This document shows positions 4,054 through 62,281 of a stretch of DNA of 64,000 bases, in pieces. Within the stretch, counting starts at the first letter, position 1; the number at the start of each line of letters is the position of its first letter. The DNA lies in the IMG/VR virus record IMGVR_UViG_3300037391_000017, positions 1-64,000 of that record; one strand, given 5' to 3'. Position numbers and translations under genes: made by a program. The notes beneath the pieces are model-generated. The model did no database searches. It saw nothing but the letters and a program-made list of their open reading frames with translations, and was not told the origin of the DNA. The DNA is from a virus.

Positions 4054-4721
4054 ATTGATTTAATACTCGACTCGTCTGGTGTCAGGGTGACAAATCTTTT
4101 ATTCATAAACTTCGCTGGTCGAGTACGACCACGAACCCAGCCTTGTTGGAGGTGCTGATTCAATTCCGCCATTTTGATTTTCTTCTCAACTCCGTTGAGT
4201 TGAATCCAACAAGTCCCGAATTGTGAATTTTGTGGTCTGTCTTTAAGCTTTTCACGTGTCCCATCGGTCATGAACCGCAGTCCGTTCCGATTGAGGTTAG
4301 CCAGTTGTTTTTCAGTTCTTGGGGTTGCTTTCATTCTGGCTATGGCGTCAGGGGTATGCTTTCGCCCTAATAAGGTCGTCTGTATTTTCTTTCGTGTTTT
4401 AGAGGAATGATGTCCAGTAAACCCCTCACCGCCTCTGCAAACGTTGTAGCCGTACTCGGGGTCTTGGGAACGAAGGAAAGCGATGAAGTCCCGCTCGTAC
4501 TGATTTAACTCGGCATGGGTTTGAACGTCAGACAGAAGGGCGTGAATAGACCAATCGCAAGGGAGCGGATGCTTACGCATGGAGTTGAACAGATGGGAAG
4601 ACCCATGGACATGCCGCGCCTTAGAAAACTTCTTCTGGAAATACAGCTTCAAGTTGTCGCCTTTGTGCTGGCCGACATAATACTTCCCCGTGATGTGGTT
4701 GACGATCAGGTAAATGAACAT
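4011..4721 (-). mobile_element. Free-standing GIY-YIG homing endonuclease with NUMOD3-type repeats
   Basis: FIYLIVNHITGKYYVGQH, ERDFI, YGYN..RGGEG, GHHSSKTRKKI, GRKHTPDA. Confidence 0.85.
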
Positions 4722-4725
4722 GAAA

Positions 4726-4748
4726 AGACCCCCTTATTAAGAGGGTCT
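4726..4748 (-). promoter_or_regulatory. Hairpin sequestering the SD of the GIY-YIG gene; may also terminate recA transcripts
   Basis: agaccctctt-aat-aagggggtct then tttc-ATG. Confidence 0.55.
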
Positions 4749-4781
4749 GAAAGTCGTTTAATTTCAACTACCTTTCTCGAT

Positions 4782-22889: not shown

Positions 22890-25800
22890 TTAGTAAATCC
22901 AGTATTGCGTTCCGTCCCACTGTACAGTGACGCTTTGTCCTTGTGTAGAGAGGGTGACGGTTGGACCGAAATCAATGTTCACAGTTGATGCCACGGTGAT
23001 TATGCCGATGCCGATGTTCTTGATGTAGTATTCCTGTCCAATCACGATCCCAGTTGTCGGCAGCGTCACGGTGAATGTGCCGTTGCAGTTGATCGTGTGA
23101 TCGAACTCCGTGGCGGTATACGTCGTGGTCTGCGTCTGAATGCTGGTAGCAAAGCCGCCCGTAGCAACCGTGCCTGTCTGGGAACCAACGGTTTGACCAA
23201 CAGCGAACACACCAGCCGATACACGAGACAGGAAGATGTCAGTTGCCGCCGCACCGAAGCCTAAGTAGCTCGTGTACAAATCCATCACGGATGGGGTTGT
23301 ATCGCTTAGATGGAAGTGAGGAACCCCCGAGAGACTAACCTGAGCCTGCCCTGTTGCGCTAAGAATCTCGATTGTGGTGTCGTACAACTGAATGGTGTGC
23401 GCTGGGAGACCGCTGTTTACCAACCAGAGGGAGCCGCTAGTGTCCAGATACATGTTCGGCGTCCCGCTGCCGTTGATGTACCAGTCTTGGATGTCAGAAC
23501 TATTTGGATCGCCCGTCACTGACAAAGCTACAGCGGGGTTTATCGCGTTTGTTTCATCAATCGTTACAGGCGTGCTGCTAATTGTGACTTGATCGCCGCC
23601 ACCCGTGCCCGGGATGATAAAGACATGACCTTCAGTCTCACCGAAAATCTTAAACACACCGGGCTGCAATTGCACTGTCGCGCCTGCGGTGTCTTCCATG
23701 AACAACTGAACGCCGCGAGTATCACCGTAGGCAGTAACCGTCATGCCGGGGTTTGCCGTGCCTTGTATGTACCAGTTCTGGATCGGGTCGGCGAAAGTAT
23801 CACTGTACAGAGACAACGCTACGACTGGAGCCAGTGCTGGGTCTGGGGTGATCGACATCTGACCGATCCCATCAATACTCGCGATTGGAGTTCCGTTACC
23901 GTTTACGTACCAATCCTGAATGTCACTATCCGCCGCATCACCTGTCGTGGACAATGCCACGCCTGTGCCTGTAGGTGCAAGAGCGACGGCACCAGCCGTC
24001 GTAACGGAGCTTCCCGCGATACCTGCAAAGGCACCCGCGAGGTTGTACTGAATCTCAGTCGGCGACCCGCCCGGTGTTCCTGTTGCTGGAATCCATGCAA
24101 CGCCCGTTACCGTGGAACTCAGAACGTAACCGCTTGCGCCGGGGGAAGCCGATCCGTCCAGCAATGTCGAGTTGATCTGCGCGGGACCGCCGAAGAAACT
24201 CGTGCCCTCGGTCGCGTAAAACGCCCAGTAAGTTGAAGGCGCTGTTCCAGCGTGAGCACCGATGAACACGCCGTAGTAAGTACCGAATGTCCCAGTGTTG
24301 AAGATGCCATCAACCTTAACGCCATATCCAGTAGTGACTATGCCGGGGGCAGAATTGACCACGGTAACTTCTACGCCAACAAGCGTCGTGATTGTGCCTT
24401 GTGCTCCTTCAGCGGCGAATACACCACCTTGAACTAGAGTGGTGGAAGCGCCCGCAGATGCACCAGCGGAAATACCTACAATCGAATTCGCAGCGCCAGT
24501 TCCGGGGTTCGCACTAACTGATGTGCTGATACCAGTGATGTTATCAATGGTTCCACTGCTCTCGTGCGTGTAGCTGGTCGAGATTGTTGAAACGCTTCCA
24601 AAGTTCGCTGTCCCATCCGTGGACATCGTTGCTTCGTAGCCAATGTAGTCGGTGCCTGTGAAGTCGCCTGAGCCGTTGACCGTCAGGTTCATCTGATAGC
24701 CAGAATAAATGGATGGCGTCGTCGTGGTGAACAAATCCAGCACATCGATGCGGCTGTTCGGAATGTCCCCACCTGCCGAGATGTTGTTTCCGACAGCTAA
24801 GGCCGCGTCGAAAGCTGACACTGTGTTTGTTGTGTCCCAGACAAATTCAGCAGAACCGCCGAATGCTCCCGAGTTGTTGTACTGAACATTCGTGTTTGCA
24901 CCACCCGGGGATGTAACAGTCGGTGTTGCCCACGCTGCTGCCGTACCACTTGTCGCTGTGAGTACCTGTCCCGTAGTCGGTGCCGTCTGACTGACCAGCA
25001 CTAACCAAAGCTGAGTCGCTTCCACCACGCCCGATCCGCTGACCATGAGCGTTGCACCTGAATCTACGACCATTGCGGCGGAAGTATTTGTGCCTGACAA
25101 GATGTCGGTGAATGAGGTTGTCGCTGCGCTGGATGGAGTCCATGCGGAACCGTCCCACACGATTGCTTCGCCAGTTGTTGCACCTGACTGCGGGATGTCG
25201 GCGAGGGTGAACGTCACCACCCCAGTGCGAGTGTTGAACGAGTTTACAACGGGCTGCCACGAAGGAATACCACCCACCACCGTCAGTGCTTGACCAGTTG
25301 TACCGATGGGCAGACGCAATGGTCCTGCCGCGCCCTCGTAAATCATATCCCCCGTTGTGGTCATGGGATTGATTATCACGTTCGCTAAAGAAACACCTGA
25401 ATCCTGCGTATTGCCGAACACGTCAAAGGTGACGATATCGCCAGCGGTGATACCGCCCGCTCCCGAAGGAACGGTGATGGTCTCGGCGGCTCCAAAGGTG
25501 ACGCTCGCGCCTGTGGAGATCGCCCTACCATTCAGAGCACCTCCGACAAACGAAATTCCAGCTTGAGCGATGATGGTTCCTACAAAACTACCCGTGGCTT
25601 GGTTAGCATCGAAGGTAGCCGCACTGCCGACCACAAAAATCACATCCGCCGCTGACGCACCGTTGGTAAGAACAAACGTTGTCGGAGCCGTGGTGACATT
25701 CAACGCAGAACCAACTTGGAAGATGTAAACCCCAGCACCGTTCAGGGTTACGGTTCCACCCGAGAAAAGCAACGTGCTTGATGCGGTGTACGTTCCCGGA

Positions 25801-26768
25801 GTGAAGGTTTGCGAGGCGACAGACGATATGATCGTACCTGCGGGCAACGTGGAGTAGTAGTTATACGCGGCGACCGCAGCCGTTTGAGCCGCACCTGCGT
25901 CGGCATTATCTACGGTAGCTGGGGGCGGGTTGAAGCCTGTGATGCTCGGGGTTGGCGATGATCCAATGACGCCGCCAGTGATTGAGGTCGAGCCCGTATT
26001 AGTGATTCCAGCCGAAGCAAGAACAGCATAGTTCGCCGCCGAGCCCAATTCCGTAGTAACGGGGGACGCGGGTGGGGCGGGATTTGTCAGTTGAACAAGA
26101 GTGCCATTACCCTGAGCACTGCAAATTTGAGACGTTGAGAGGCAGCCAGACAAGCGGCTGAAATCGTTAAAGCCCGCGAGGAATATGGCGGTCACAACAT
26201 TGGGAGCAGTGAAAGCTACGACGTATCCGACAGTTTGATCGAGGCTTGGAGCGCCCGGTCGAGTGAGGGTGATGCCGCCCGGTGTGACAGCCGACAAGTA
26301 AACTTCCGCACCAACACTGCTGAGAGAAAATTCGTGGTTCTGATCGATGTACTCGAAAAGGCCGCTGAATGCAACGGTTCCGGGCTGTCCTGCGTCGATA
26401 GGTGACGTTAGAAAACCTTGAGCAGACAAGGCTAGGGTCGGGGGTGAACCGCTGCCAGCTTCGGCAAGTTCTGCCGTCAAAACACCGCCAACACTGTAAA
26501 GATGAACGAGGGGGGCACCGAGTTGAAGGTTTGTAGCCGCCACAGCGGTGACGCCAGTGTTTAGCAGCGAGGGATCAAGAACACCATTCGGGTTGAGAAC
26601 TACGGGCACACCATACGACGCTGGTCCGAGCGATTGCACAATAACACCATCGACACCCGTAACGATGTCAATCAAGTTCGATCCCGTTTGCTGCGGCACA
26701 ATCGGTGCTGCCACAACCTGATTCGGGTTGATGTTAAAGACGCAGACTCTTGTCGGTGATTGTGCCAT
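22890..26768 (-). CDS. Large fibre-like protein with an ice-binding (DUF3494) domain
   Basis: LGSAANYAVLASAGITNTGSTSITG, FTPGTY, YIFQVGSAL, LTNGASAADVIFVVGSAAT, FVGTIIA, LNGRA; fibre linkers; C-terminal QWDGTQYWI. Confidence 0.8.
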   Translation of the reverse strand: MAQSPTRVCVFNINPNQVVAAPIVPQQTGSNLIDIVTGVDGVIVQSLGPASYGVPVVLNPNGVLDPSLLNTGVTAVAATNLQLGAPLVHLYSVGGVLTAELAEAGSGSPPTLALSAQGFLTSPIDAGQPGTVAFSGLFEYIDQNHEFSLSSVGAEVYLSAVTPGGITLTRPGAPSLDQTVGYVVAFTAPNVVTAIFLAGFNDFSRLSGCLSTSQICSAQGNGTLVQLTNPAPPASPVTTELGSAANYAVLASAGITNTGSTSITGGVIGSSPTPSITGFNPPPATVDNADAGAAQTAAVAAYNYYSTLPAGTIISSVASQTFTPGTYTASSTLLFSGGTVTLNGAGVYIFQVGSALNVTTAPTTFVLTNGASAADVIFVVGSAATFDANQATGSFVGTIIAQAGISFVGGALNGRAISTGASVTFGAAETITVPSGAGGITAGDIVTFDVFGNTQDSGVSLANVIINPMTTTGDMIYEGAAGPLRLPIGTTGQALTVVGGIPSWQPVVNSFNTRTGVVTFTLADIPQSGATTGEAIVWDGSAWTPSSAATTSFTDILSGTNTSAAMVVDSGATLMVSGSGVVEATQLWLVLVSQTAPTTGQVLTATSGTAAAWATPTVTSPGGANTNVQYNNSGAFGGSAEFVWDTTNTVSAFDAALAVGNNISAGGDIPNSRIDVLDLFTTTTPSIYSGYQMNLTVNGSGDFTGTDYIGYEATMSTDGTANFGSVSTISTSYTHESSGTIDNITGISTSVSANPGTGAANSIVGISAGASAGASTTLVQGGVFAAEGAQGTITTLVGVEVTVVNSAPGIVTTGYGVKVDGIFNTGTFGTYYGVFIGAHAGTAPSTYWAFYATEGTSFFGGPAQINSTLLDGSASPGASGYVLSSTVTGVAWIPATGTPGGSPTEIQYNLAGAFAGIAGSSVTTAGAVALAPTGTGVALSTTGDAADSDIQDWYVNGNGTPIASIDGIGQMSITPDPALAPVVALSLYSDTFADPIQNWYIQGTANPGMTVTAYGDTRGVQLFMEDTAGATVQLQPGVFKIFGETEGHVFIIPGTGGGDQVTISSTPVTIDETNAINPAVALSVTGDPNSSDIQDWYINGSGTPNMYLDTSGSLWLVNSGLPAHTIQLYDTTIEILSATGQAQVSLSGVPHFHLSDTTPSVMDLYTSYLGFGAAATDIFLSRVSAGVFAVGQTVGSQTGTVATGGFATSIQTQTTTYTATEFDHTINCNGTFTVTLPTTGIVIGQEYYIKNIGIGIITVASTVNIDFGPTVTLSTQGQSVTVQWDGTQYWIY

Positions 26769-30355: not shown

Positions 30356-30431
30356 TGGGGGCGTTTACGGGAGTCGAACCCGCCATCATGTGATTGAAAG
30401 TCACAGGTCCAAGCCGATAGACGGAAACGCC
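30356..30431 (-). tRNA. tRNA-Glu(TTC)
   Basis: Cloverleaf, loop CT-TTC-AA, encoded CCA. Confidence 0.9.
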
Positions 30432-30608
30432 ATGTTTCTAAACTCTGCGGTTGTTGTCCACAACCCCTGCAAGGGCAGCGACCTTCAACCGCTTTGGGAC
30501 TTGGCTGTACCAAAATCCGTACACTTCACGTTTGCAGACGTTGCTGCACGAACATCGCGGGTATTCGCCGTATTCCCCGCCAGCCTAGAGGAAACTACCC
30601 CCTAATCT

Positions 30609-30684
30609 TGGTACGCCGTGTTGGACTCGAACCAACGGTCTCTACCTTGTCATGGTAGCGATTTAGCCGCTAATCTAACAGCGC
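30609..30684 (-). tRNA. tRNA-Val(GAC)
   Basis: Cloverleaf, loop AT-GAC-AA, CCA. Confidence 0.9.
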
Positions 30685-30686
30685 AC

Positions 30687-30775
30687 TGGTGTACCCGAGA
30701 GGGATCGAACCTCCGACCTGCTTCCAGCAACCCGAAGGCTGATGGAAACCGCTCTGCCAGTTGAGCTACAGGCAC
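30687..30775 (-). ncRNA. Anticodon-less tRNA-like RNA (G3:U70, A73, UUCG-capped long arm)
   Basis: Normal acceptor, D and T arms and CCA; anticodon arm is gtttcca-t-cagcc-TTCG-ggttg-c-tggaagc. Confidence 0.85.
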
Positions 30776-30846
30776 AAACAAACTGGTGGAAAGGAAACCC
30801 CGGCAAGGATTTTACATTGCTACATGTCTGCAACAACCCACCCGTA

Positions 30847-31056
30847 CTATTTCTGAGCTTCTCGGATTGCTCGTAGAAGCGCATTCTGCGAAGCATCCTC
30901 GGGCAAACCATACTCCAAGTTCGCCTTCTTCAAATGTGCATCCCTACGCAACCCCGTATCGATACCGAACTCGTCTTCGAAGGTTCCGACGTGCTTGTCG
31001 TTACGTGTCTTGCGAATCTGACCATCTTCATCTGTAGAACGATCATCTAGTCCCAT
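30847..31056 (-). CDS. 69-aa protein (MGLDDRSTDEDGQIRK...)
   Basis: AGGAGG SD. Confidence 0.7.
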   Translation of the reverse strand: MGLDDRSTDEDGQIRKTRNDKHVGTFEDEFGIDTGLRRDAHLKKANLEYGLPEDASQNALLRAIREAQK

Positions 31057-31071
31057 ACAGCCTCCTAAACT

Positions 31072-31147
31072 TGGTGGACCCGAGGGGATTCGAACCCCTG
31101 ACCTCCGCAGTGCGAGTGCGGCGTTCTCCCAACTGAACTACGAGCCC
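31072..31147 (-). tRNA. tRNA-Ala(CGC)
   Basis: Cloverleaf, G3:U70, CT-CGC-AC. Confidence 0.95.
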
Positions 31148-31539
31148 AACTCAAAATCTTTCGCCCAACGGATACCGTCACGCTGGTTGTTCTTCGACGG
31201 TGCCAAACGCAACTGGCATCCAGCGATAGGCGCATCTATCACGGGAATTACGTACACCTTATCGAGTTCCACGCAATACACCGCAAACAAATCCGCATCC
31301 CCACGATAGTCCCGACGTGGACAATTTCGAGATTGGCTACAGGTGTCAAATCTTAAAACAGTACGACCCCTGCACAGACGCCCTTTCTTCACTTGAATCC
31401 GCACGGCGTTCGCACCATCCAGAGTCACCAAATCGTACCGCTGGGCGTCCCCAAATGGGACCAGAACCTCTTTACCGTTTCTTACCAGTGCCGCCAGTAC
31501 AGCGGCCACAGCCATGTTTCCCGCTTGAGAGCTATTCAT
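31138..31539 (-). mobile_element. PD-(D/E)XK homing-endonuclease-like protein (group I intron-associated family)
   Basis: PFGDAQRYDLV, IQVKKG, DYRGDADLFAVYC; own TG-TAGAAT promoter. Confidence 0.8.
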
Positions 31540-31557
31540 CTCTCCATTCTATCACAC

Positions 31558-32625
31558 CTACTCGCCCGCGATAACCGAGTGTAGGGGAGAGGACGGCTCC
31601 CACACGAGCTTCCCATCCGTTGCCCCTCCATCTTTCGCATGTTTTTCAGCAGTTGCCTTGAGCAGCGCGGCCACACTATCCAGATTCGCAAGGTGCGGTG
31701 TAATCGGGCCATGTTCTAGGCAATCCACCGTGAAGAAACGAAATCCAAAATCCGTGCCTTCTGATGCTTCACATCGCCGCCCACACTGCGGACAAACGAT
31801 GAAAGTCTCACTATGCCCGTCCTCCTCCACCTTTACCATGATCTTGAAATCCATTATCACTGGCTCGGCTGGCGTTTCCTCGCGATTATACGCAGGTGCG
31901 GTATGCCGGGATGAATCCTTCTGCCAATCAATATCCCACCGACGAAACACAGAACCCGAAGCTACCAACTTCGCCGCCATGTAATTGAAATAGTAATCGC
32001 GCAATTGATCCACCACGGGAGACACTTTCTTATCTTTGAGTAGCGGTGCCCAAGGGTACGCCCAGCGCCCGTTGTCCATCTTAATTTTCATGTTCGCCGA
32101 CATCACCACGATAGCCTGCACGTGCGGAAGAGACTCCTTTCCAGTATCTTTCTTGTACTTGAGCATAATCCGTTCGCACAGAATCAAGAAATCTGTTGGG
32201 TGATGTAGACGATTATTCTCGTTCGCAATCAAAACGAGTCCGAAAGCATCTGGCTTATTCAGACGGCGCTTGGACGCCTTGATCTGGAAGTTGGCTTTGA
32301 GGATGTGGTTCTTAATGGATGGTTCCAGCAGAGCACACCACTCGTCTTGTAGGTCAAGGGACAAGTCTTTCAACCTGAGCATCGTCTGCCCAATCGGAGC
32401 AACGCGGCCCGACGCCTGCCAACGTGCAAACATATCCGTTAATGCCGCGTAGTATTCGTCTGACGGGTCTTCCAGCAGCGTCTTTTGCTCCACGATCAAG
32501 TTGAGGTCGGGATACCAGTAATCTGCGCTCGGCTCACCCTCTTCGGTGGAGAACGGGATTAGGGTTCCTCCGACAGCGACCGTGATGTCACGCCACAACT
32601 GCTCCGACTTTGCAAACTGAAACAT
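31558..32625 (-). CDS. PD-(D/E)XK-like nuclease with a C-terminal zinc ribbon
   Basis: Start re-called at MFQFAK after GGAGG; SADYW..LIVEQKTL; CPQC...CLEH. Confidence 0.6.
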   Translation of the reverse strand: MFQFAKSEQLWRDITVAVGGTLIPFSTEEGEPSADYWYPDLNLIVEQKTLLEDPSDEYYAALTDMFARWQASGRVAPIGQTMLRLKDLSLDLQDEWCALLEPSIKNHILKANFQIKASKRRLNKPDAFGLVLIANENNRLHHPTDFLILCERIMLKYKKDTGKESLPHVQAIVVMSANMKIKMDNGRWAYPWAPLLKDKKVSPVVDQLRDYYFNYMAAKLVASGSVFRRWDIDWQKDSSRHTAPAYNREETPAEPVIMDFKIMVKVEEDGHSETFIVCPQCGRRCEASEGTDFGFRFFTVDCLEHGPITPHLANLDSVAALLKATAEKHAKDGGATDGKLVWEPSSPLHSVIAGE

Positions 32626-32641
32626 ACGTCCTCCGTGAACT

Positions 32642-32717
32642 TGGTGCACCTTGCAGGATTTGAACCTGCGACTCCCACCGTGTGAAAGTGGTACTCTGGC
32701 CGCTGAGTTAAAAGTGC
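32642..32717 (-). tRNA. tRNA-Val(CAC)
   Basis: Cloverleaf, TT-CAC-AC, CCA. Confidence 0.9.
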
Positions 32718-32723
32718 AAAACT

Positions 32724-32799
32724 TGGTAGCGTTGATGGGAGTCGAACCCACCGTCATTGCATTGAGAGTGCAAGGTCCAAACCGATAGACGGCAACGCC
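32724..32799 (-). tRNA. tRNA-Glu(CTC)
   Basis: Cloverleaf, CT-CTC-AA, CCA. Confidence 0.9.
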
Positions 32800-32869
32800 A
32801 CAATCATATAATTGGCCCTTTTAGTGAAATTCTTCACGGTTTTGGCCGTTTTATACGACGTAATAAACT

Positions 32870-32945
32870 TGGTGGACCTAAGGGGGGTCGAACCCCTGAC
32901 CTCATCCATGCCATGGATGCGCTCTCCCAACTGAGCTACAGGCCC
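32870..32945 (-). tRNA. tRNA-Ala(GGC)
   Basis: Cloverleaf, G3:U70, AT-GGC-AT. Confidence 0.95.
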
Positions 32946-32948
32946 AAA

Positions 32949-33356
32949 TTACCACTCCCAAAGTTTCGCGTCGATGTACTCCGCGATGTTGTTCTTTGGA
33001 CGTTCGTACCGCAACGTTAAAACCGATTGTCCATCCCACAAAACCGCTGGGAGCATGTAAACTTTATTCGTTTGCGGCGAGTACGCTGCGATGAAATCAA
33101 CCTCAGCCGCCGTATACTTTTTCCGCTTCTTGTTGTGACCGATGGACGACACTTTCACTTGGAAGCTGCCACTCGTTGCTTTGGACGATGCTCCCGCGTA
33201 CTTAACCTGCACACGAGACAGCTTCCCGTCCACATCCATCACTAAATCGTAGCGGCAATTCTCCGTTACGGGGCGACTCATCATGACGCCCTTTTCAATT
33301 GCGCGGAGCAGAACCCTAAGAATGGCCTGCTCACCCTTGGTCGTGGTTATATCCAT
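32949..33356 (-). mobile_element. Second PD-(D/E)XK homing-endonuclease-like protein
   Basis: TTTKGE, RYDLV, RVQVKY, YTAAEVDFIAAY; TG-TATCAT-N6-ATG. Confidence 0.85.
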
Positions 33357-33378
33357 CTTACGATGATACCACAAAATC

Positions 33379-33453
33379 TGGAGCGAGTGGTGGGATTCGA
33401 ACCCACGACCTGATGGTTGGGAACCACCTATTCTACCACTGAACTACACCCGC
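33379..33453 (-). tRNA. tRNA-Gly(CCC)
   Basis: Cloverleaf, U73, TT-CCC-AA. Confidence 0.95.
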
Positions 33454-33511
33454 AGCGGGTGCGAGAAGGGGCTCGCGTCGTCTCGGCTCCGTTTAGCCGA
33501 ACCCGTAATCT

Positions 33512-33586
33512 TGGAGCGGACAGCGGGGCTCGAACCCGCGACCTCATCCTTGGCAAGGATGCGTTCTACCACTGAACTATGTCCGC
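33512..33586 (-). tRNA. tRNA-Gly(GCC)
   Basis: Cloverleaf, TT-GCC-AA. Confidence 0.95.
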
Positions 33587-33793
33587 ACTACGTGTGTCCC
33601 AGTCGGTCGGCTTTCACCACAATTGGTTCGGATTTCTCGGAACCAACGCCCCTGTTGGGGATCGAGTCTCGCAGCCGCAGCTACGGCGTTTTTCACTTTC
33701 GTGTCCACGCGGATCACACGGGTTACTTATTTGGGGAGGATGGGCGTTACTCCAGTTTTGACCTCCGTCCAACAACGGAGCCTCCCCTAATCT

Positions 33794-33868
33794 TGGAGCG
33801 AGCAACGGGAATCGAACCCGTCTCTGTGGCTTGGAGGGCCACGGCACCGCCAGTTATACCTTACTCGC
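33794..33868 (-). tRNA. tRNA-Gly(TCC), atypical (A8, C33)
   Basis: Cloverleaf, CC-TCC-AA, U73-CCA. Confidence 0.85.
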
Positions 33869-33879
33869 TTAAAGTATTC

Positions 33880-34254
33880 GTGTTGAACCTATAGCCGGGA
33901 TTCTGTCGCGGACGACCATTCCTCTAGGCGTTGCATCACTACAACGCTCAAGCACCCTACCCGCTGATTACCCGCCTCTTGCGAAGCGAACGGATCGAAC
34001 ACAATCCTGCTCAGCCTATTTGGGCTTCTGCACGTGGAGATTGCTCGTTTCACCCGAACTGAATCGGCTCGTCTCTGTAGCTCTAATCGTCAACACCCTT
34101 GCGGGTGCCGCCCAGCCGTTAGCTGGCACGCTGTTCTTTGCAGTCCCGAACTTCCTCCCCTGCGCTCAACGCCGGACTTGGTTGGGAAGGCTTTCGCCAA
34201 CGCTTCCAAGCACAGGACGTATATCTACGCAGCGGCGGTCGTCCAGTTCAACAC
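33880..34254 (-). ncRNA. rnpB: RNase P RNA, bacterial type A-like
   Basis: P1 gtgttgaac/gttcaacac; GAGGAAGUUCGGGA and ACAGAAUCCCGGCUAU forming P4; tgccag-taac-ctggg, acagagacgag, gggtgaaac, ctagaggaatg landmarks in order. Confidence 0.9.
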
Positions 34255-34331
34255 AAATTTTCAAAGAGCCTACTATACTAGGCGAAAGCTGACCTTCTGC
34301 CTCTAAAGCCCAATATGCTAGGCTTTAATCT

Positions 34332-34407
34332 TGGAGCACCCGGTCGGTGTCGAGCCGACTCAGTAGTGGTTTTGCAGACCACCGCGTTCCCGTTTCGCCA
34401 CGGATGC
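34332..34407 (-). tRNA. tRNA-Cys(GCA)
   Basis: Cloverleaf, CT-GCA-AA, U73. Confidence 0.85.
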
Positions 34408-34529
34408 AAACTTTTTGAAAGCACTCGACTCGGTAGGGTTCGATTCCTACATAAGCGCACAACCACCACGCTATTTATTGGAACAGGCGATTTAGCCTGC
34501 CTTAACTTACGTCTGGCGCTCTCAAAGCT

Positions 34530-34606
34530 TGGCGGTGACGGGGGGATTTGAACCCCTATATTCTCCCGTGACAGGGGAGCCCATTAGCCAGTTATGGTAC
34601 GTCACC
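34530..34606 (-). tRNA. tRNA-Asp(GTC)
   Basis: Cloverleaf, CT-GTC-AC, G73. Confidence 0.9.
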
Positions 34607-34612
34607 AAAATT

Positions 34613-34691
34613 TGGCGGGGACGACGGGATTTGAACCCGCGATCTCTTCCGTGACAGGGAAGCATGTTAGACCGGGCTACACCACGGCCCC
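34613..34691 (-). tRNA. tRNA-Asp(GTC), second copy
   Basis: Cloverleaf, CT-GTC-AC, G73. Confidence 0.9.
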
Positions 34692-34705
34692 GCATTACAA
34701 AAACT

Positions 34706-34780
34706 TGGAAGCGGCGGCGAGAATCGAACTCGCGAATAAAGACGTTGCAGGTCTCGACCTTACCACTTGGCTACGCCGCT
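34706..34780 (-). tRNA. tRNA-Cys(GCA), second copy
   Basis: Cloverleaf, CT-GCA-AC, U73. Confidence 0.9.
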
Positions 34781-34793
34781 GTGAATCTAAAAT

Positions 34794-34868
34794 TGGTGGA
34801 CACGGGGGGATTTGAACCCCTTCTTTCACTTTGCAAGAGTGACGCATTCCCAGTTATGCTACCGGCCC
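34794..34868 (-). tRNA. tRNA-Ala(TGC), divergent acceptor stem
   Basis: G3:U70, CT-TGC-AA, mismatches at pairs 5 and 6. Confidence 0.8.
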
Positions 34869-35086
34869 ATTTTTGCTGGCTTCGCGACACTCTTCAACGT
34901 GCCGTGAGTCAGATCAAACTCTAATTGCCGAACCACCATCTTGTCCATCTTGTCGAGGACTTCATCCTCGGTGTCGGCAGTCGCAACTAATCCCAACGTC
35001 GGGTGCCACGCTTGGAAGCCCCAATCCTGTCTCTCGACCTCTACAGTCGTGACCAGCTTTACGATACGTGATCTGTTGCGTTTCAT
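34859..35086 (-). CDS. HicB-like fold small protein
   Basis: VEVERQDWGFQAWHPTLGLVATADTEDEVLDKM matches the HicB N-terminal pattern. Confidence 0.55.
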   Translation of the reverse strand: MKRNRSRIVKLVTTVEVERQDWGFQAWHPTLGLVATADTEDEVLDKMDKMVVRQLEFDLTHGTLKSVAKPAKMGR

Positions 35087-35101
35087 CTTTCAATCCAATC
35101 T

Positions 35102-35177
35102 TGGTGCGCCGGGTGGGACTCGAACCCACGGTAGTCGTCTTGTAAGGGCGATGCTTTAGCCGCTAAGCTACCCGCGC
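35102..35177 (-). tRNA. tRNA-Val(TAC)
   Basis: Cloverleaf, CT-TAC-AA, CCA. Confidence 0.9.
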
Positions 35178-35189
35178 AAATTTTACCGC

Positions 35190-35222
35190 AAAAACAAAAA
35201 GGACGCTCTGTTTGAGCGTCCT
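35190..35222 (-). terminator. Attenuator terminator immediately upstream of the tRNA array
   Basis: aggacgctc-aaaca-gagcgtcct then ttttgttttt. Confidence 0.85.
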
Positions 35223-35271
35223 CGGAAACCGTTGATTTGGAAGTTGTTACTCTCCAAACCCTCCCGAGGAC
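35218..35271 (-). promoter_or_regulatory. Antiterminator hairpin
   Basis: gtcctcggga/ttccgaggac (10 bp) plus ggtttggag/ttccaaatc; overlaps the 5' arm of the terminator. Confidence 0.75.
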
Positions 35272-35378
35272 ACCATATCTCCTACCGCCGCCGCGTCAGC
35301 GGCGACAGTACCGCGTTCGGCTGCGCTACACGCTGCGACCGTCACGATAACACCTGCGTTTTGGAGATTGGAGTTCAT
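35247..35378 (-). CDS. 43-aa GNN-codon-rich leader peptide MNSNLQNAGVIVTVAACSAAERGTVAADAAAVGDMVSSGGFGE
   Basis: 26 of 43 codons are GNN; first ATG after the promoter; stop lies in the antiterminator loop. Confidence 0.75.
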   Translation of the reverse strand: MNSNLQNAGVIVTVAACSAAERGTVAADAAAVGDMVSSGGFGE

Positions 35379-35393
35379 AAGCGTCTCTGTACT

Positions 35394-35421
35394 ATAATAC
35401 CCGAATTTCAAAAACTTGCAA
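35394..35421 (-). promoter_or_regulatory. Sigma70-like promoter of the tRNA operon
   Basis: TTGCAA-N16-TATTAT. Confidence 0.7.
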
Positions 35422-35600
35422 CAACTATTTTTCAGAAAAGAGCGAGAGCCTATGTCCTGCACCCGCGTTGCGGGAAAACTAAGCGGACAAACGCCGTCTC
35501 CGACCGACCTAACGCGAGGGCATGATCCCCGTTCGCTTATCGGCTCTCTTGCTGGTGCAGCTTCATCAGGCGGATGAGCGCCAACTGCATCAGCGAAACT

Positions 35601-35676
35601 TGGTGGACCTGAACGGGCTCGAACCGATGACCTCTTCCTTGCAAAGGAAGCGTTCTCCCAACTGAACTACAGGCCC
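35601..35676 (-). tRNA. tRNA-Ala(TGC), upstream of the attenuator
   Basis: Cloverleaf, G3:U70, TT-TGC-AA. Confidence 0.95.
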
Positions 35677-56255: not shown

Positions 56256-58694
56256 ATGGTTCAAGACAATTCCATTTTCTATCCGCAAGCGCCCGTAACG
56301 CGGGGTCGTACTCAATTGCAGTACGAGATTTTCATTGGTCGCGTGCTCTCCGTTGACCAAGAGCGGATAGTGTTGACACTAGAGGACATACGCGATGGCG
56401 TGATTTACAAGGAAGTTAACATCTTCCCGAGTGAGCATTCGTCGGTTGAATCAACCACCATTCACATGCCCGAGCAGTTCTCGATGTGCGTGGCGTGCCA
56501 AACACTGTACAATCAGGGGTTCAGTCAGGTCACCATCATAAGCTGGATCACGTCGAGCGTGACGAAGGCTCTGGACGCAATTGCTCAACGTCCGATCTCT
56601 GGCACTGTGGTTCAGGGAATGTCGGATCGTTTACGCGGCACCTACCGAAAGGCGTACCCCGGACAGAAGACCTCATCCTACACGGGTGGTTACACGGAAA
56701 AGATTGACACGGGCTGGGATCGCGCTGGGTATGACTTCAGTCGAGACCGTCTCGATCCAGAACGTCGGCAGTGGACTCAGGTCACGGGTCGGCATGTTGG
56801 GTACTCGGACGCTGGTCTCTCCTTCCGTGGCACAGTGAATCGCCCTAATGCGACCAACATTAAGCCCGCCGTGCTTCCCGATGGGAGCTACCAGTACGTG
56901 TATTATCTCGCGCCGGGATCGCAGCCCACTGACCGCTACCTATCGGGCAAACCCGACGTGATTCCATTCGTGGAAAACACGGAACTCACGCAGGAGTTCG
57001 CTCTCGATTATCCGCTACCCGTGGAGCTTATCCAGACTGATCTGTTCGATCAAATTCTTGGCACTACTCAATCCCCGTGGACTCGCACATCCGTTGGCGC
57101 ATTACCCGTAACAGGTGCCGCTGTCGCCGAACCATTCTACGCAACAACGGGTAACCTCCCTCCAGCCGTCACTCCGAATGTTCTAGCGGATAATCAGACC
57201 TACCTCATTCAACAAGGCATTGACCACCCGTATGACACAACGGCAACTCCAGTCGGCCCAACTCTGAACGAGGGCCAAACCCCGCAACGTCGGGCATTCA
57301 TTATTGAGAAGGTCGCTGGTACGCTGGTCGGCTACAACCGTTTTGACAAGGGAACCTATGGTTACGTGCTCAAGCCCGTTCTGTTTCCTTACACATCACA
57401 GGGTCGTTTCGGGGCGGATGTAGATAGTAGTTACTTGGCGGTTAAGGACTCGCCCAACCACGCTGAAGCCCGACTCGCTGCCTCGGCTCTCGCAATTCGG
57501 TTCCCCCACGAGTACAACACGACTCGTCTCGATGTGACCAAAGAGGGATTCACAAGCATGGAAATTGGTTCTACGCTCCCGATGGAGAACAATCAGTTCG
57601 GAGGCGGGTATGAGCACCCGCACGGTGCTGGACGATCTTTGGAAGCCCACTTCGTCGGCAGCGTCAAGGCGGTCGTGGGTAAGAACCGCGATGAGGAAGA
57701 GGCCATCGATCTTCAGGCGTTAGGGCAAGTGGTTGTGCGTCTCGGGGCAGACGATCAGGGATTGCCCAATGCCCGTCGCAGCGTACAGACACAGACTCGT
57801 AGCAAGGCTGATGCCCCAGCAGCCCGCACATTGCAATATTGGGATGCTAACCATCTTGGGTTGAAAGTCGCGGGGGATTCAGGCGTCAACGCCATGGGCT
57901 ACAACAAGACTGGAGCCGAAAGCATTTCGCTTCAGGCGGCATTCGACGGTGCGGCTGTTGTCCGCCTCGGTGCTCGTAACCCAGCGGCACTACGCCGCCA
58001 TCTGATGAATGGCTACATTGATGGCCCGGGCGTTCAAGCATGGAGCGTGGGAGATTCAGGTCGTATGGATTCTCATTCTCCGGGTCGTCCGAATTACGGA
58101 GGAGGAGACAGCAAGTATTCCTTCCACGACATGACAACCGCAGGTGCACCGACCTTGAACATGCTGCCGTACAACACGGCAGCATACAATGCACTCGGTA
58201 CGCCAATCCCCATCAATCCGAATATAACGCCGCAGACGACGGCAATGGATCAGCACGGACTGTCGTTTGATTTTCACTCGGTACGAGACCTGTTGGTTCG
58301 CGTGGGGAAAAACCCAAGTTCTGGGCAGTCCATATTGATTGATTCGGCTGGCGGTTTGGTTGCAACTCTCGGGAAGGACAACCAAGGACGCTCGATCACG
58401 GCATCGTTTGACGGTGGGGTGCAGATCACCATTGCGGCAAACAACAGCGGCAAAGCCCTTCAGATCGAGCTTTTGGGTGATGTTGACATCGTACACGAAG
58501 GCAACTTGCAGTACCTATGCACGGGCGATTTCGTCACGGAATGCACCACGTGGAACCATGTCAGCAAGACCGACACGGTATTTACGCAACAGAAAATGGT
58601 TCAAGCGTCTAACGCACGCCATACAATAGAGGCTCCCGATATCGTGCATAACCAAGGAACTCAGGTTTCAGCACCCGGGGGAGAGAATAGCTAA
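56256..58694 (+). CDS. Central spike (gp5/VgrG-like) protein
   Basis: N-terminal OB-fold pattern IGRVLSVD, C-terminal beta-repeat region; follows the hub gene. Confidence 0.55.
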   Translation: MVQDNSIFYPQAPVTRGRTQLQYEIFIGRVLSVDQERIVLTLEDIRDGVIYKEVNIFPSEHSSVESTTIHMPEQFSMCVACQTLYNQGFSQVTIISWITSSVTKALDAIAQRPISGTVVQGMSDRLRGTYRKAYPGQKTSSYTGGYTEKIDTGWDRAGYDFSRDRLDPERRQWTQVTGRHVGYSDAGLSFRGTVNRPNATNIKPAVLPDGSYQYVYYLAPGSQPTDRYLSGKPDVIPFVENTELTQEFALDYPLPVELIQTDLFDQILGTTQSPWTRTSVGALPVTGAAVAEPFYATTGNLPPAVTPNVLADNQTYLIQQGIDHPYDTTATPVGPTLNEGQTPQRRAFIIEKVAGTLVGYNRFDKGTYGYVLKPVLFPYTSQGRFGADVDSSYLAVKDSPNHAEARLAASALAIRFPHEYNTTRLDVTKEGFTSMEIGSTLPMENNQFGGGYEHPHGAGRSLEAHFVGSVKAVVGKNRDEEEAIDLQALGQVVVRLGADDQGLPNARRSVQTQTRSKADAPAARTLQYWDANHLGLKVAGDSGVNAMGYNKTGAESISLQAAFDGAAVVRLGARNPAALRRHLMNGYIDGPGVQAWSVGDSGRMDSHSPGRPNYGGGDSKYSFHDMTTAGAPTLNMLPYNTAAYNALGTPIPINPNITPQTTAMDQHGLSFDFHSVRDLLVRVGKNPSSGQSILIDSAGGLVATLGKDNQGRSITASFDGGVQITIAANNSGKALQIELLGDVDIVHEGNLQYLCTGDFVTECTTWNHVSKTDTVFTQQKMVQASNARHTIEAPDIVHNQGTQVSAPGGENS

Positions 58695-61600
58695 TGGGAA
58701 GTGCACCTTCAGGCAGTCTTTTTCCGATCTTAACACCGGGGGCAATTGTCCGCCACACCCCTGCTGGCGATCCCACCATCGAGCAATACTACCACCAAGC
58801 GATGGAAGATGGGCGCTTGCTCGAAGCCTGCGTTGGGGATGCCAACAACTGGCTCCTCGAAATGAAGATGCGGATCACCAAGGATATCAACACTTGGTTG
58901 AGCATGAACCAACTCGCCGTGGATGGTCAGCTTGGTCACAGACCCCGAGTGCCGAAGTACATCGCGGATTCAATTCAGTTGTTGCATACCGTTAGCCAGT
59001 ACCAGAAGGAGTTGGCGGGCGTTGCTACGGCTCTCAACCAGAACATCACGCTGCTGCTGACGATGAAAAACACCTTGACGGGATACGTTCAATCGACCTT
59101 GAACGCTCTTGCAAATCTGTTGAATAACATCTGTAATTGGAATCTTCCGAAGATACCATCCCTTCCAGTTTTGCTTGCCAGTGGGCACTTCAATTGGAAC
59201 GGGTTTCAGTTTTCACCGTTGCAGGGGTTTGCTAAATCCATCGGCAACTTGCCAAATCTCAACTTCAATTTCTCGTTCAGCCAGTGCAACCTTTTGAGTT
59301 TGGGTGCCAACCCCACTACTCAGCCGTCCTCGATCACCACGTTGGGCGGACTGACCATCAACCCGTCAGGATTGTTCACCCCGCCGCTCGGCGGCACCAT
59401 AGCGACTGGAACCGAAACTCCAGCGCAAATGCAAGCGATCACCACGCCTCCAATCTACGGGCCTACATTCAATCCAAACTCCTCTATGTTGGGCGCGGTT
59501 CCCGATCCCCACACAATCATCGACAACTACCAGATGCCGCCCGCCACATATCAGAGCAACATCGTGAGTATCGTGCCCGCTCTCCGTGGCGACACCATAG
59601 AACCGACTGATCCCGACTACGCTAATCCGAATCTGACGGTTCGACAGGCGAAGCTTCGCCAAGACTTGGTGCATTACATCACGCTTGAACAGGTGGTCGC
59701 GTCGAACTATGACCCGTTCATCACATCCGCGTGGTTGTTCTACTTGCAAATCTGCCGCACTGGGCGCGGCGGTAACTGGATTACGAATTTCCAAGCGGCC
59801 TACAATCAGTACATCGTGCCGTCTCTCACTTCACTGGCAAACAATCCCGTTCCGTGGAACAATGTCCTCGGCAGTCTCGGTGATTTTTATGAGGGTGCGT
59901 GGCTCGTTGGAACAAACTATTTAGCTGGAGATGTGGTTGTCTATAACAGCACGTTCTACATCGCACTCGTCGCAAACACTGGGTTTGAACCCGATACCAA
60001 CCCCGCCACTTGGCAAACCCCCATTCCCACGGACATCGTGTACCAGAACACGCCCACGGACATACCGCTGATCGATGTGCTCACCGCCGCAGGCGCGGGT
60101 ACGCAAGCTCAACTGAACATTCTGTGGAAGCTGAGCTACGTTGAGGCGTCCTTGCTGGGTTACACTCGGACGACGCTCTGGGATGGCGGTGGGGATTCGA
60201 ACTACCTTTCGGGATTCACTGGAACTGATTTGGATTACGAGCCCACGGCTATCGTTACCACAAATACGACAAGCGAAATTCTGGGATCAGGTACGGCAGC
60301 GTACCCCGTGTCCGTCATCATTCCAACCGCAATCAAGGTGATCTTTGATGAAGTTGTGGCACAAGCGACTCTCAACATTGCGAATGACATAACGTATCAG
60401 TCGCCCTACCCGAAATTCAAGTACGTTTACGATCAGTTCGCCGAGGCTACACTCGTAGACAGATTCACGCAATTCTGGCGGACTTTCAACTACAATTTAT
60501 TGGTGCTGCTGGCTCAAGACCCATACCTCGTGTCGTTCGTGGTAACGTATGAAGGGGCGCTGGACTCCGCGATTGACCCGTTGGGTGACCCCACAGACTA
60601 CAACGCCGTATCAGCGGATGCCGCGAGTCGCAACCGTGGTTGGACGCCCGGAACCCCGCTGTTGAATATCCCGACCGCACCCATCGTTGCATACGTCAAT
60701 TCCACCCCGCCGACCAGTGCGAACAACGGCTGGCTTTCGCCGACCCAATTTGATGCTAACGCATTCTTGATGCGTCCCGACGTTCAGGCACTTCCGATTC
60801 CAACGCAGTTAGCCATGCTGCGGACGAACATTAGCTATGCGGGGCTGAGCCTCTTCCTACAACAGGCGATCACGGGGTTCAACACCGCGATTACCAACGC
60901 CCAAAACGCCATTGCATCGGCATCGCAGTTGGGGTTCTATGTGAGCGCCAATGGTCAAACAGTTACGTCCCCCGTGCCAGTAGTTTTTACAACCACAGGA
61001 GCCAACAATTTTGACATGAGTGGGTACGTCACAGGCCCGTCCACGTTTACCATTCAGAACGCAGGAAACTTCGCGGGATACGGTGAGATTGACTGGGATG
61101 TGACTACGGCGGGTTCTTTTACCATCACGGTGACTCAGAATGGCATTCCGATTTCTACCACAACGTCAGACCTCGTGGTTGGATCACCAGAAGCCATGCA
61201 GTTCTCGTTCACAGGAAATTTCGCGATAGGGGACGTTATACAGGTGATTGCTCAGAGTACGTCCAGTTCACAGATTCTAACGACTGGCTATTTCAGCATG
61301 ATTCAAACAAGCTCAACCCCCGCCCCCGCTCCTCCGTCAGTGGTTGTCATGGATGATTCAAGCCAGTTCACCGCTGACGCCACGATGATTGCGGGCACTG
61401 TAGTGCAGGTACAACCCGATGGCGGGATAGCCCCGCTCAACTTGTTCGTGTCATCGTTGGATTCAACATTAGGAACAAACGCTCAGATTATTGCCCCGAA
61501 TCAGATTCTCGTCACCGTCAATGGGCATTATTTTGTTCCGAGTGACATCATCACGTTTACGGGTACGAGCGGCATAACCCCCGCCGTCAACGGGCCGACT

Positions 61601-62281
61601 GTTGCAGCGATAGTCACCGCAGTGACACCTACGTCGATCACCGCCACACTTTATGGGGTGAACTCTCCCATGTCGTGGGCACCATCCTCAGCGGTAACAA
61701 GCCCCGGAACCATAAATCTCATGGATCAATCGGGAGTCGTCGTTCAATACCCCCTCTCGGATGGTGTTCTAACGGCGGCGGGAGCGATCACCAGTAGCGT
61801 AGCCGCAGGCGTTACCTATGGCGGGCAGTTCGGAGTGGTTGGAGCAAGTTTTGTGGTAGGTGGTTTGGTTTACGCGGGTATGGGCGGCGTCCTGACGCAG
61901 AACTATGCCGCGATCACCGCTTCGCCTCTCACTATCACCGCAACCGCAACCGCTGGCGGCGTGCTTACCGTCACAGCAACCAGTCCAGTTTCGCTTGTCG
62001 GGGCTTCCGTGCTCCTGTACGACACAGCCGAGACCAGCACTTTGAACGGTCAAACGTTCGTCGTCACATCTATGGTTTCCTCGGGTTCCCCGCCGACCTA
62101 CACTGGTTTCAAAACCAGCAGCACATCTACGTCGGGCGTCACCATCCCTGATGGATTGAACAACTCGTCGGACACGGGCACCGCCAATCCAGCCGTGGAT
62201 TATATCGTCTGCGTCGGTCGGGCGGTCTCAGGCACCGAACTCATCTACGAGCCCCACATCCCAACCCTCGTCGTCCCGTAA
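58694..62281 (+). CDS. Large virion structural protein with a CBM5/12-like module
   Basis: GAWLVGTNYLAGDVVVYNSTFYIAL..P...W; beta-rich C-terminus. Confidence 0.6.
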   Translation: MGSAPSGSLFPILTPGAIVRHTPAGDPTIEQYYHQAMEDGRLLEACVGDANNWLLEMKMRITKDINTWLSMNQLAVDGQLGHRPRVPKYIADSIQLLHTVSQYQKELAGVATALNQNITLLLTMKNTLTGYVQSTLNALANLLNNICNWNLPKIPSLPVLLASGHFNWNGFQFSPLQGFAKSIGNLPNLNFNFSFSQCNLLSLGANPTTQPSSITTLGGLTINPSGLFTPPLGGTIATGTETPAQMQAITTPPIYGPTFNPNSSMLGAVPDPHTIIDNYQMPPATYQSNIVSIVPALRGDTIEPTDPDYANPNLTVRQAKLRQDLVHYITLEQVVASNYDPFITSAWLFYLQICRTGRGGNWITNFQAAYNQYIVPSLTSLANNPVPWNNVLGSLGDFYEGAWLVGTNYLAGDVVVYNSTFYIALVANTGFEPDTNPATWQTPIPTDIVYQNTPTDIPLIDVLTAAGAGTQAQLNILWKLSYVEASLLGYTRTTLWDGGGDSNYLSGFTGTDLDYEPTAIVTTNTTSEILGSGTAAYPVSVIIPTAIKVIFDEVVAQATLNIANDITYQSPYPKFKYVYDQFAEATLVDRFTQFWRTFNYNLLVLLAQDPYLVSFVVTYEGALDSAIDPLGDPTDYNAVSADAASRNRGWTPGTPLLNIPTAPIVAYVNSTPPTSANNGWLSPTQFDANAFLMRPDVQALPIPTQLAMLRTNISYAGLSLFLQQAITGFNTAITNAQNAIASASQLGFYVSANGQTVTSPVPVVFTTTGANNFDMSGYVTGPSTFTIQNAGNFAGYGEIDWDVTTAGSFTITVTQNGIPISTTTSDLVVGSPEAMQFSFTGNFAIGDVIQVIAQSTSSSQILTTGYFSMIQTSSTPAPAPPSVVVMDDSSQFTADATMIAGTVVQVQPDGGIAPLNLFVSSLDSTLGTNAQIIAPNQILVTVNGHYFVPSDIITFTGTSGITPAVNGPTVAAIVTAVTPTSITATLYGVNSPMSWAPSSAVTSPGTINLMDQSGVVVQYPLSDGVLTAAGAITSSVAAGVTYGGQFGVVGASFVVGGLVYAGMGGVLTQNYAAITASPLTITATATAGGVLTVTATSPVSLVGASVLLYDTAETSTLNGQTFVVTSMVSSGSPPTYTGFKTSSTSTSGVTIPDGLNNSSDTGTANPAVDYIVCVGRAVSGTELIYEPHIPTLVVP

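Follow-up and report, generated by a model that had tools for sequence, protein, structure and literature searches.

Why should a virus hold, in a single block of genes, tRNAs for every codon that begins with G, together with tRNAs for Cys? The question is raised by 16 tRNA genes at positions 30356-35676, all on the minus strand, of a 64-kb stretch of viral DNA (64,000 nucleotides; hereafter, the window) that forms the start of the 103,414-bp virus contig IMGVR_UViG_3300037391_000017 of IMG/VR. The contig, for which CheckV gives a completeness of 33%, is roughly one third of a jumbo phage genome, and its proteins include phage-type helicases, ribonucleotide reductase, and large structural-looking proteins. 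An earlier note, made from the sequence alone, had described the block as a tRNA array sorted by first codon base, comprising the complete GNN row (N, any nucleotide) plus Cys. Our results lead us to a reading to which we assign a probability of about 0.6, namely, that in a clade of jumbo phages the GNN-plus-Cys block would be one of several separately gated tRNA operons (approximately six to seven in complete relatives), each behind a ribosome-mediated attenuator. On this view, the "complete GNN row" most likely lists the members of one feedback unit and should not be taken as evidence that the phage sorts its tRNAs by first codon base.

Leaders matched to the tRNA units that they precede

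Upstream of tRNA-Val(TAC) lie a promoter-like site, a short leader open reading frame (ORF), and an intrinsic terminator (Table 1). Of the 43 codons of the leader, 26 are GNN codons and one encodes Cys (27/43; binomial P = 2e-4), and in its GNN-plus-Cys fraction the leader ranks first among the 477 small ATG-initiated ORFs on the contig. Its ATG is situated 15 nt after the -10-like hexamer and is preceded, at a distance of 6 to 11 nt, by a purine-rich stretch. The 12-mer that forms the -10 context, GGTATTATAGTA, occurs exactly twice on the 103-kb contig (expected, 0.01), each time just 5' of a leader ORF, and the promoter-like region is conserved in alignment A2. The leader uses 15 of the 16 GNN codons; this coverage is at chance level (P = 0.07 here and 0.14 to 0.64 in relatives), and we do not claim that the leader samples every GNN codon by design.

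The terminator ends approximately 10 nt before tRNA-Val(TAC) and is present in all relatives. Its 5' arm, which begins with CCGAGGAC, is complementary to a strand (segment 2) within the last part of the leader ORF, at a distance of 14 nt from the stop codon. Neither the stop codon nor this spacing varies among six genomes, which fits occlusion of the strand by a ribosome. The minimum free energy (MFE) fold of the free RNA from this contig pairs segment 2 with the 5' arm of the terminator, and when the stretch that would lie under a ribosome at the stop codon is blocked in the fold, the terminator forms, with -17.7 kcal/mol. In the alignment, 96% of the cells of the antiterminator helix are paired, versus 44 to 58% when the partner strand is slid, with one compensatory change, and the corresponding values for the terminator helix are 87% versus 34 to 66%. 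A U-A to C-G change in G002 is mirrored in segments 2, 3, and 4. We identified no clear candidate for segment 1 in this region. Three sequence features expected of a leader-peptide attenuator, a short translatable ORF, over-represented cognate codons, and a terminator before the first gene, are present here.

These features suggest the following course of events. Transcription from a phage promoter at approximately 35390-35421 on the minus strand would first proceed through the 43-codon leader, in which codons for Val, Ala, Asp, Glu, Gly, and Cys predominate, the codons that the downstream tRNAs read. When these are read quickly, a ribosome at the stop codon would cover GTCCTCGG, the terminator at 35225-35189 would form, and the operon would be off. 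When the GNN tRNAs or their charged forms are scarce, the ribosome would stall in the GNN tract, and segment 2 would pair with the 5' arm of the terminator. The resulting antitermination would allow read-through into 15 tRNA genes, a tRNA-like gene with Ala identity, and a phage RNase P RNA; as the last of these is flanked by tRNAs, it would be excised from the same precursor. The translation of the ORF, the function of the switch, the sign of the regulation, and the single transcript are inferred. One further tRNA-Ala(TGC) gene, at 35601-35676, precedes the promoter and is therefore outside the gated unit, and the same layout, with tRNA-Ala(TGC) ahead of the leader, is found in the relatives G002, G003, and L002.

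Relatives were collected in three ways. The proteins flanking the block led to jumbo phage contigs of 223, 332, and 456 kb, with 52 to 87% identity. A clade-specific motif in the RNase P RNA led to six more contigs, two of which are 463 and 265 kb in length, and a pattern for the attenuator cassette gave 87 matches, of which five are real loci (four new and one already known), including L107, L148, and L163/L156. A second RNase P motif yielded no further relatives, and a relaxed version of the motif yielded 18 extra matches, with neither RNase P RNA nor tRNA in any of the 16 that were rescanned. The cultured Tunturiibacter phage Tunturi_5, which is the best GenBank match, was rejected as a relative because it shares tRNA similarity only, and it served as a contrast. 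In this unrelated jumbo phage, the tRNA array is of mixed rows and contains no RNase P RNA.

The block is kept in G001 to G005, L002, L051/L054, L056, L107, and L163/L156, corresponding to approximately 11 distinct blocks examined. Each of them contains decoders for Val, Ala, Asp, Glu, and Gly along with Cys-GCA, and among approximately 156 decoders the sole one that is neither GNN nor Cys is Phe-GAA in L107. The internal order of the genes differs widely among lineages. RNase P RNA is present in every block that was scanned for it, most often between the genes for Cys and Gly(TCC). Three complete tRNAs of the blocks, Cys-GCA, Glu-TTC, and Ala-TGC, were skipped by ARAGORN. In L002, ARAGORN also reports a tRNA with a four-base anticodon (AGTT) at 4700-4774 (+), 1.3 kb upstream of the block, which is not in the Rfam scan at the gathering threshold.

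We then searched all fetched arrays for leaders without regard to composition, taking the longest ORF that ends near a terminator just 5' of a tRNA. Homologous leaders were recovered before the GNN block in all six genomes, with enrichment of the unit's own residues at P = 2e-5 to 8e-3, and each of these six leaders has one or two Cys residues, against a background of 0.9%. The distant L163 and L107 lineages also keep the GNN-unit leader, in the former case with one Cys and the cassette. Different leaders were recovered before four other units. Enrichment for the amino acids of the unit itself was P = 4e-5 to 7e-4 for the Ile/Thr/Gln leader, P = 8e-3 for the Trp/His/Arg/Asn/Gln/Lys leader, P = 0.02 to 0.27 for the Tyr/Leu leader, and P = 0.05 to 0.13 for the Pro/Met/Phe leader. 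When leader types were compared with units in a matrix, every leader type was most enriched for its own unit, and the true assignment came first among the 120 (4.77, versus 2.78 for the runner-up). Inspection of unit heads that the search had missed revealed a leader with a run of Ser before the Ser unit of G004 and a second K/H/Q/R/N/W leader in G002, while the 320 nt that precede the first tRNA of the G002 Ser unit yielded none. The leaders of different units have a similar C-terminal tail, which encodes the antiterminator strand. This suggests a single cassette with rewritten sensor tracts.

The leader of the L107 block, which holds the Phe-GAA gene, contains three Phe residues, compared with zero to two in the other GNN-unit leaders. 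We considered coevolution of leader and block in this case and regard it as suggestive only. On the contig itself, a second gated unit is located outside the window at 103063-103253 (+), where a 30-codon ORF with many Thr, Gln, Lys, Ile, and Arg codons is followed by a terminator and by a tRNA-Ile gene 86 bp from the contig end. An extended -10-like site lies only 7 nt before the ATG of this ORF, so that its transcript is probably leaderless.

Gene content of the block and its RNase P RNA

ARAGORN returned the 16 tRNAs listed in the earlier note with identical coordinates and anticodons, and all 16 were confirmed with Rfam RF00005 at 43 to 74 bits. Cytosine at position 36 (C36) is present in 14 of the 16, all 12 GNN anticodons are covered, the remaining two genes are Cys-GCA, and neither the ARAGORN nor the Rfam calls include an ANN or CNN decoder in the block. 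With 16 tRNAs and one tRNA-like gene in 5.3 kb on one strand, the density is that of a tRNA array unit. The block also contains the Ala-identity tRNA-like gene mentioned above, the RNase P RNA, and three ORFs, two of which encode PD-(D/E)XK endonucleases (Table 1). The expected identity elements are found in the tRNAs, for example, G3:U70 in Ala, U73 in Gly and Cys, and G73 in Asp. An origin of the block by duplication followed by anticodon shift was considered and rejected, as the identity between tRNAs for different amino acids within the block (0.61 to 0.62) equals that between arrays (0.61 to 0.62).

Table 1. Features of the tRNA block and its control region, in the direction of the minus strand (positions in the window)
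Feature	Position	Strand	Evidence or remark
tRNA-Ala(TGC)	35601..35676	-	ARAGORN + Rfam; 5' of promoter and leader
Promoter-like site, TTGCAA-N16-TATTAT	35421-35394	-	Consensus match
Leader ORF, 43 codons + TAA	35247..35378	-	ATG start, minus-strand reading
Putative antiterminator strand (segment 2, GTCCTCGG)	35264..35271	-	Perfect 8-nt complement of terminator 5' arm
Intrinsic terminator: segment 3 (CCGAGGAC...), loop, segment 4, T-run	35189..35225	-	9-10 bp GC-rich stem
tRNA-Val(TAC)	35102..35177	-	ARAGORN + Rfam; first gene of the gated unit
tRNA-Ala(TGC)	34794..34868	-	ARAGORN + Rfam
tRNA-Cys(GCA)	34706..34780	-	ARAGORN + Rfam
tRNA-Asp(GTC)	34613..34691	-	ARAGORN + Rfam
tRNA-Asp(GTC)	34530..34606	-	ARAGORN + Rfam
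tRNA-Cys(GCA)	34332..34407	-	ARAGORN + Rfam; directly 5' of RNase P RNA
Bacterial type-A RNase P RNA	33876..34254	-	RF00010, 165 bits, E ~1e-53
tRNA-Gly(TCC)	33794..33868	-	ARAGORN + Rfam
tRNA-Gly(GCC)	33512..33586	-	ARAGORN + Rfam
tRNA-Gly(CCC)	33379..33453	-	ARAGORN + Rfam
PD-(D/E)XK endonuclease ORF	32949..33374	-	PF11645, E = 2e-26; likely a mobile or homing element
tRNA-Ala(GGC)	32870..32945	-	ARAGORN + Rfam
tRNA-Glu(CTC)	32724..32799	-	ARAGORN + Rfam
tRNA-Val(CAC)	32642..32717	-	ARAGORN + Rfam
~360-aa ORF	31558..32640	-	No PHROG or Pfam match
PD-(D/E)XK endonuclease ORF	31138..31539	-	PF11645, E = 3e-31
tRNA-Ala(CGC)	31072..31147	-	ARAGORN + Rfam
tRNA-Ala-like gene	30687..30775	-	Permissive Rfam scan
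tRNA-Val(GAC)	30609..30684	-	ARAGORN + Rfam
tRNA-Glu(TTC)	30356..30431	-	ARAGORN + Rfam; last gene of the block

The score of the RNase P RNA compares with a curated threshold of 100 bits, and the match spans model positions 1 to 367, which identifies the RNA by sequence as type A. The specificity domain is reduced, as approximately 43 model positions are absent and a neighboring helix is shortened. The strands of the conserved core show no variation among five phage copies (alignment A1), and the homologs in relatives score 139 to 267 bits. The order Cys, RNase P RNA, Gly(TCC) is kept in G001 to G004 and in L002, and the distance from the 3' end of the RNase P RNA to the 5' end of tRNA-Gly(TCC) is 7 nt here and 4 to 11 nt across relatives. 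With so short a distance, cleavage by RNase P at the tRNA would make or trim the 3' end of its own RNA. No gene for the protein subunit RnpA was found in four phage genomes.

In the tRNA-like gene at 30687-30775, the identity elements are those of alanine (G3:U70, A73, and an encoded CCA end), and the UGC anticodon loop is broken by a 13-nt hairpin capped with UUCG. The homolog of this gene in G003 (L047) carries a 25-nt insert at the same site. Another anticodon-less tRNA-like gene is present in L163, between Val-TAC and Gly-GCC. L163 also harbors an AT-rich ORF for an HNH-type endonuclease at 2187-2574 (+), between the attenuator terminator and tRNA-Val(TAC); together with the PD-(D/E)XK ORFs of the window, this indicates that these operons attract mobile nucleases.

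The rest of the 103-kb contig carries six other tRNAs (Thr, Lys, Leu-AAG, two CTA, and Ile), none of which has C36. The two CTA-anticodon (amber-reading) tRNAs are in tandem at 100290-100461 (+) of the contig, outside the window. Two to three copies are kept in G001, G002, and G004; G003 has one called copy and one irregular call, and none is called in the fetched regions of G005. These tRNAs prompted us to consider recoding of stop codons, which was rejected for the contig, as the long ORFs gain no length when TAG or TGA is read as sense, and the apparent TAA "fusions" are neighboring genes in the same frame. The standard genetic code applies. Despite the CTA tRNAs, the long ORFs are open in this code, with TAG terminating 8 of the 53, and TAA is the stop codon of 37 of the 53 despite a genome G+C content of 53 to 54%. 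At 93612-94012 (+) of the contig, also outside the window, a permuted transfer-messenger RNA call of ARAGORN overlaps a dubious "tRNA-Thr(GGT)" with mismatched acceptor strands. Within the window, two large proteins were observed: one of 1292 aa (22890-26768, minus strand), with an ice-binding-like domain (PF11999) at residues 249 to 427, and one of 1195 aa (58694-62281, plus strand), with a CBM_5_12 carbohydrate-binding module.

Codon rows and other explanations of the grouping

How strong is the grouping by row? A permutation of single genes over the whole contig, a check put forward in the earlier note, gives p <= 3e-4 for the clustering of C36. Isoacceptors cluster in any case, and the fair unit for such a test is therefore the amino acid or row family. 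With isoacceptor families as units, the joint occurrence of the five GNN families in a single array has p = 0.015 on the contig and p = 0.002 to 0.003 in two complete relatives, and the presence of any whole codon row in one array has p = 0.003 to 0.005. The row grouping is thus genuine, though of moderate strength, and in effect it represents one evolutionary event, picked from a scan of very many windows.

The complete tRNA sets of G001 to G005 were compared in order to see the block among the other arrays. The tRNA sets of these phages are near-complete, with 39 to 69 genes. They fall into stable modules, which in addition to the GNN block are Tyr/Leu; Pro/Met/Phe; Gln/Lys/suppressor and Ile/Thr/Gln; four Ser with Leu-TAA; and Trp/His/Arg/Asn/Gln/Lys. 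All of the non-GNN modules mix first codon bases, and when the GNN block is removed there is no row sorting at the family level (p = 0.45 to 0.85). The genomes are modular, without row sorting, and since all modules are compositionally stable, conservation of the GNN block alone is no proof of selection for C36. Two placements were observed within these modules. In the Trp/His/Arg/Asn/Gln/Lys unit of G004 (L063), a third Cys-GCA gene stands among Asn, Gln, and Lys tRNAs, and the leader of that unit has no Cys codon, while in G003 a Gln-TTG gene lies within the Pro/Met/Phe unit.

Several points weigh against the attenuator reading. The promoter is a consensus-type match only, and in a generic promoter and terminator scan the number of sites in the region equals that in shuffled sequence. 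Covariation amounts to one compensatory pair per helix, and in shuffle controls it is not significant (94/500 and 126/500), the six sequences being underpowered for this purpose. The exclusivity of the antiterminator is affected in the same manner: the 8-bp complement is found in six genomes, yet the MFE fold uses it in four of the six (G000, G001, G003, and G005, not G002 and G004), and among the Ile-unit leaders in one of three only. Enrichment is weak in the Tyr/Leu and Pro/Met/Phe leaders (P = 0.02 to 0.27 over the two), and because the leaders of one unit type are homologous, the independent sample comprises approximately five to seven unit types. The presence of three ORFs inside a 5-kb block makes a single transcript less certain. 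Finally, the model gives no reason why a whole codon row and Cys, six amino acids in all, should share a unit.

Some of these points also favor the best placed of the alternatives, a frozen accident, in which the cluster is inherited, the ORF is untranslated or nonregulatory, and the hairpin serves as an ordinary terminator for transcripts of the upstream tRNA-Ala or upstream gene. The purity of the block could date from one ancestral event, given that all five or more modules are compositionally stable in the clade, and both the nonsignificant covariation statistics and the look-elsewhere effect of a large scan are in agreement with this. We nevertheless consider a frozen accident unlikely. 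It does not account for leaders before five to seven units, each in the amino acids of its own unit (1 of 120), or for Cys in every GNN-unit leader, nor does it account for the invariant stop codon and 14-nt spacing or for the same 12-mer -10 context before both leaders on the contig.

An attenuator of the opposite sign, resembling the coupling in pyrBI, would have a closely following ribosome block the terminator, so that the operon would be on while GNN codons are decoded well and off when the tRNAs are scarce. In favor of this, the end of the leader ORF lies only 13 to 26 nt before the terminator stem in all six genomes, and in G002 and G004 the MFE fold of the free RNA retains the terminator. 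A ribosome at the stop codon, however, would not reach the stem, which in the window begins approximately 24 nt downstream, and the conserved complementarity between the ORF end and the terminator arm at a fixed 14 nt is a better fit to trp/his-type logic. We regard this sign of regulation as rather improbable.

The block could also be explained by demand, if GNN is the most used row and the block is a strongly expressed operon, with RNase P RNA included and without a codon-sensing switch. GNN codons make up 34.4% of the codons in the long ORFs of the contig, whose commonest residues include Ala, Gly, and Val, and the block does contain the RNase P RNA. Demand would not place Cys there, as Cys is the rarest residue (0.9%) and is yet always in the block, and it would not leave Thr (8.7%), Leu (7.9%), and Ser (7.1%), which are as abundant as Val, to be located elsewhere. 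Early and late gene blocks use GNN codons equally (34.9% versus 33.7%), and the matched leaders are unaccounted for. Co-expression driven by demand is accordingly very unlikely to be the explanation.

Least probable of all is sorting by row, that is, by a shared C36 that would matter to a host anticodon nuclease or to a modification at position 37/36, with the other rows in sister arrays: all 12 GNN anticodons are in one block, the whole-row partition has p = 0.002 to 0.005 at the family level, and the composition is kept in approximately 11 contigs despite shuffled order, but Cys-GCA, with A36, is a constant member mirrored in every GNN-unit leader, Phe-GAA is present in the L107 block, the other arrays are mixed with no sorting left once the block is removed, and the tRNA sets are near-complete rather than a targeted subset. 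No tRNase or modification enzyme known to us has a specificity of exactly C36 plus Cys.

The claims of the earlier note thus separate. Its "functional regulon" is retained in that a promoter-like site, a leader ORF, a putative antiterminator, and a terminator belong to this block alone and that relatives keep the block along with the leader, while C36 is abandoned as the rule of membership. Separately controlled arrays with their own leader peptides exist elsewhere, as it had supposed, but they mix rows. We found nothing in support of a match to the target spectrum of a host tRNase or of a shared modification requirement.

If the attenuator reading is extended to the whole genome, it raises the possibility of a distributed tRNA homeostat, a proposal whose chances we consider evenly balanced. 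Each of the approximately six to seven operons would be switched on by stalling on a leader made of its own codons. The phage would in this way sense decoding speed and replenish the class of tRNA that is depleted, for example, after shut-off of host tRNAs or the action of a defense nuclease, and the GNN unit would also supply the phage's own RNase P ribozyme. The genome-wide idea of codon rows is replaced by a narrower and better supported one, in which an entire row happens to fall within one feedback unit.

Comparison with known systems

The phage RNase P RNA resembles bacterial type-A RNase P RNA (rnpB, RF00010) in matching the whole model and in its conserved core strands. It differs from rnpB in that it is phage encoded and situated inside a tRNA operon, with a tRNA-Gly within 4 to 11 nt, and in that approximately 43 positions of the specificity domain are absent.

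T-box riboswitches serve a similar end, in that a particular tRNA, through its state, sets the read-through into genes for the supply of translation. In a T-box, the RNA itself binds the uncharged tRNA by means of a specifier codon and does so independently of ribosomes, whereas the sensor here would be a translating ribosome. An Rfam scan of the region found no T-box match.

To our knowledge, the tRNA arrays that have been described mix codon rows and contain no RNase P RNA. The block shares with the clusters of T4 and T5, the "tRNA array units" of Mycobacterium and mycobacteriophages, and the cyanobacterial L-arrays a dense arrangement of same-strand tRNAs with encoded CCA (PMC6409571, PMC5966550, PMC8421152). 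It is also like phage and bacterial tRNA arrays in its interspersed small ORFs, its homing-type endonucleases, and its carriage by a large phage. Unlike those arrays, the block is pure in row apart from Cys, and it includes a ribozyme and is preceded by a leader ORF that matches it. In the literature searched, which excluded most subscription journals, we encountered neither leader-gated tRNA operons nor phage tRNA clusters grouped by codon row, and no phage-encoded RNase P RNA.

If the proposed mechanism is correct, no earlier case would be known in which tRNA genes regulate themselves through leader-peptide attenuation. The mechanism would offer a direct, testable answer to the question of why huge phages carry near-complete sets of tRNAs and how these are deployed, and the cassettes would be compact natural parts that report the decoding speed of chosen codons. 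To this would be added a phage-borne RNase P ribozyme embedded among its own substrates.

The closest parallels to the control region are the leader-peptide attenuators of amino acid operons (trpL, hisL, thrL, ilvL/ivbL, leuL, and pheL) and of pheST (PMC1183508). As in these, a short ORF with regulatory codons lies 5' of an intrinsic terminator, and alternative pairing is possible between the 3' end of the ORF and the 5' arm of the terminator. In thrL and ilvL, the sensing is multivalent, responding to several amino acids, as it would be in the phage leaders. In contrast to the amino acid operons and pheST, the phage device would control tRNA genes and an RNase P RNA, with no biosynthetic enzymes or synthetase, and because the controlled genes are tRNAs, the quantity sensed would be the product itself, the supply of tRNA. 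A further difference from the amino acid attenuators is that the phages encode a family of six to seven cassettes with a shared 3' tail and rewritten sensor tracts. If the switch works, the textbook attenuation of amino acid operons would have been reused by viruses for tRNA supply and copied into a family of cassettes.

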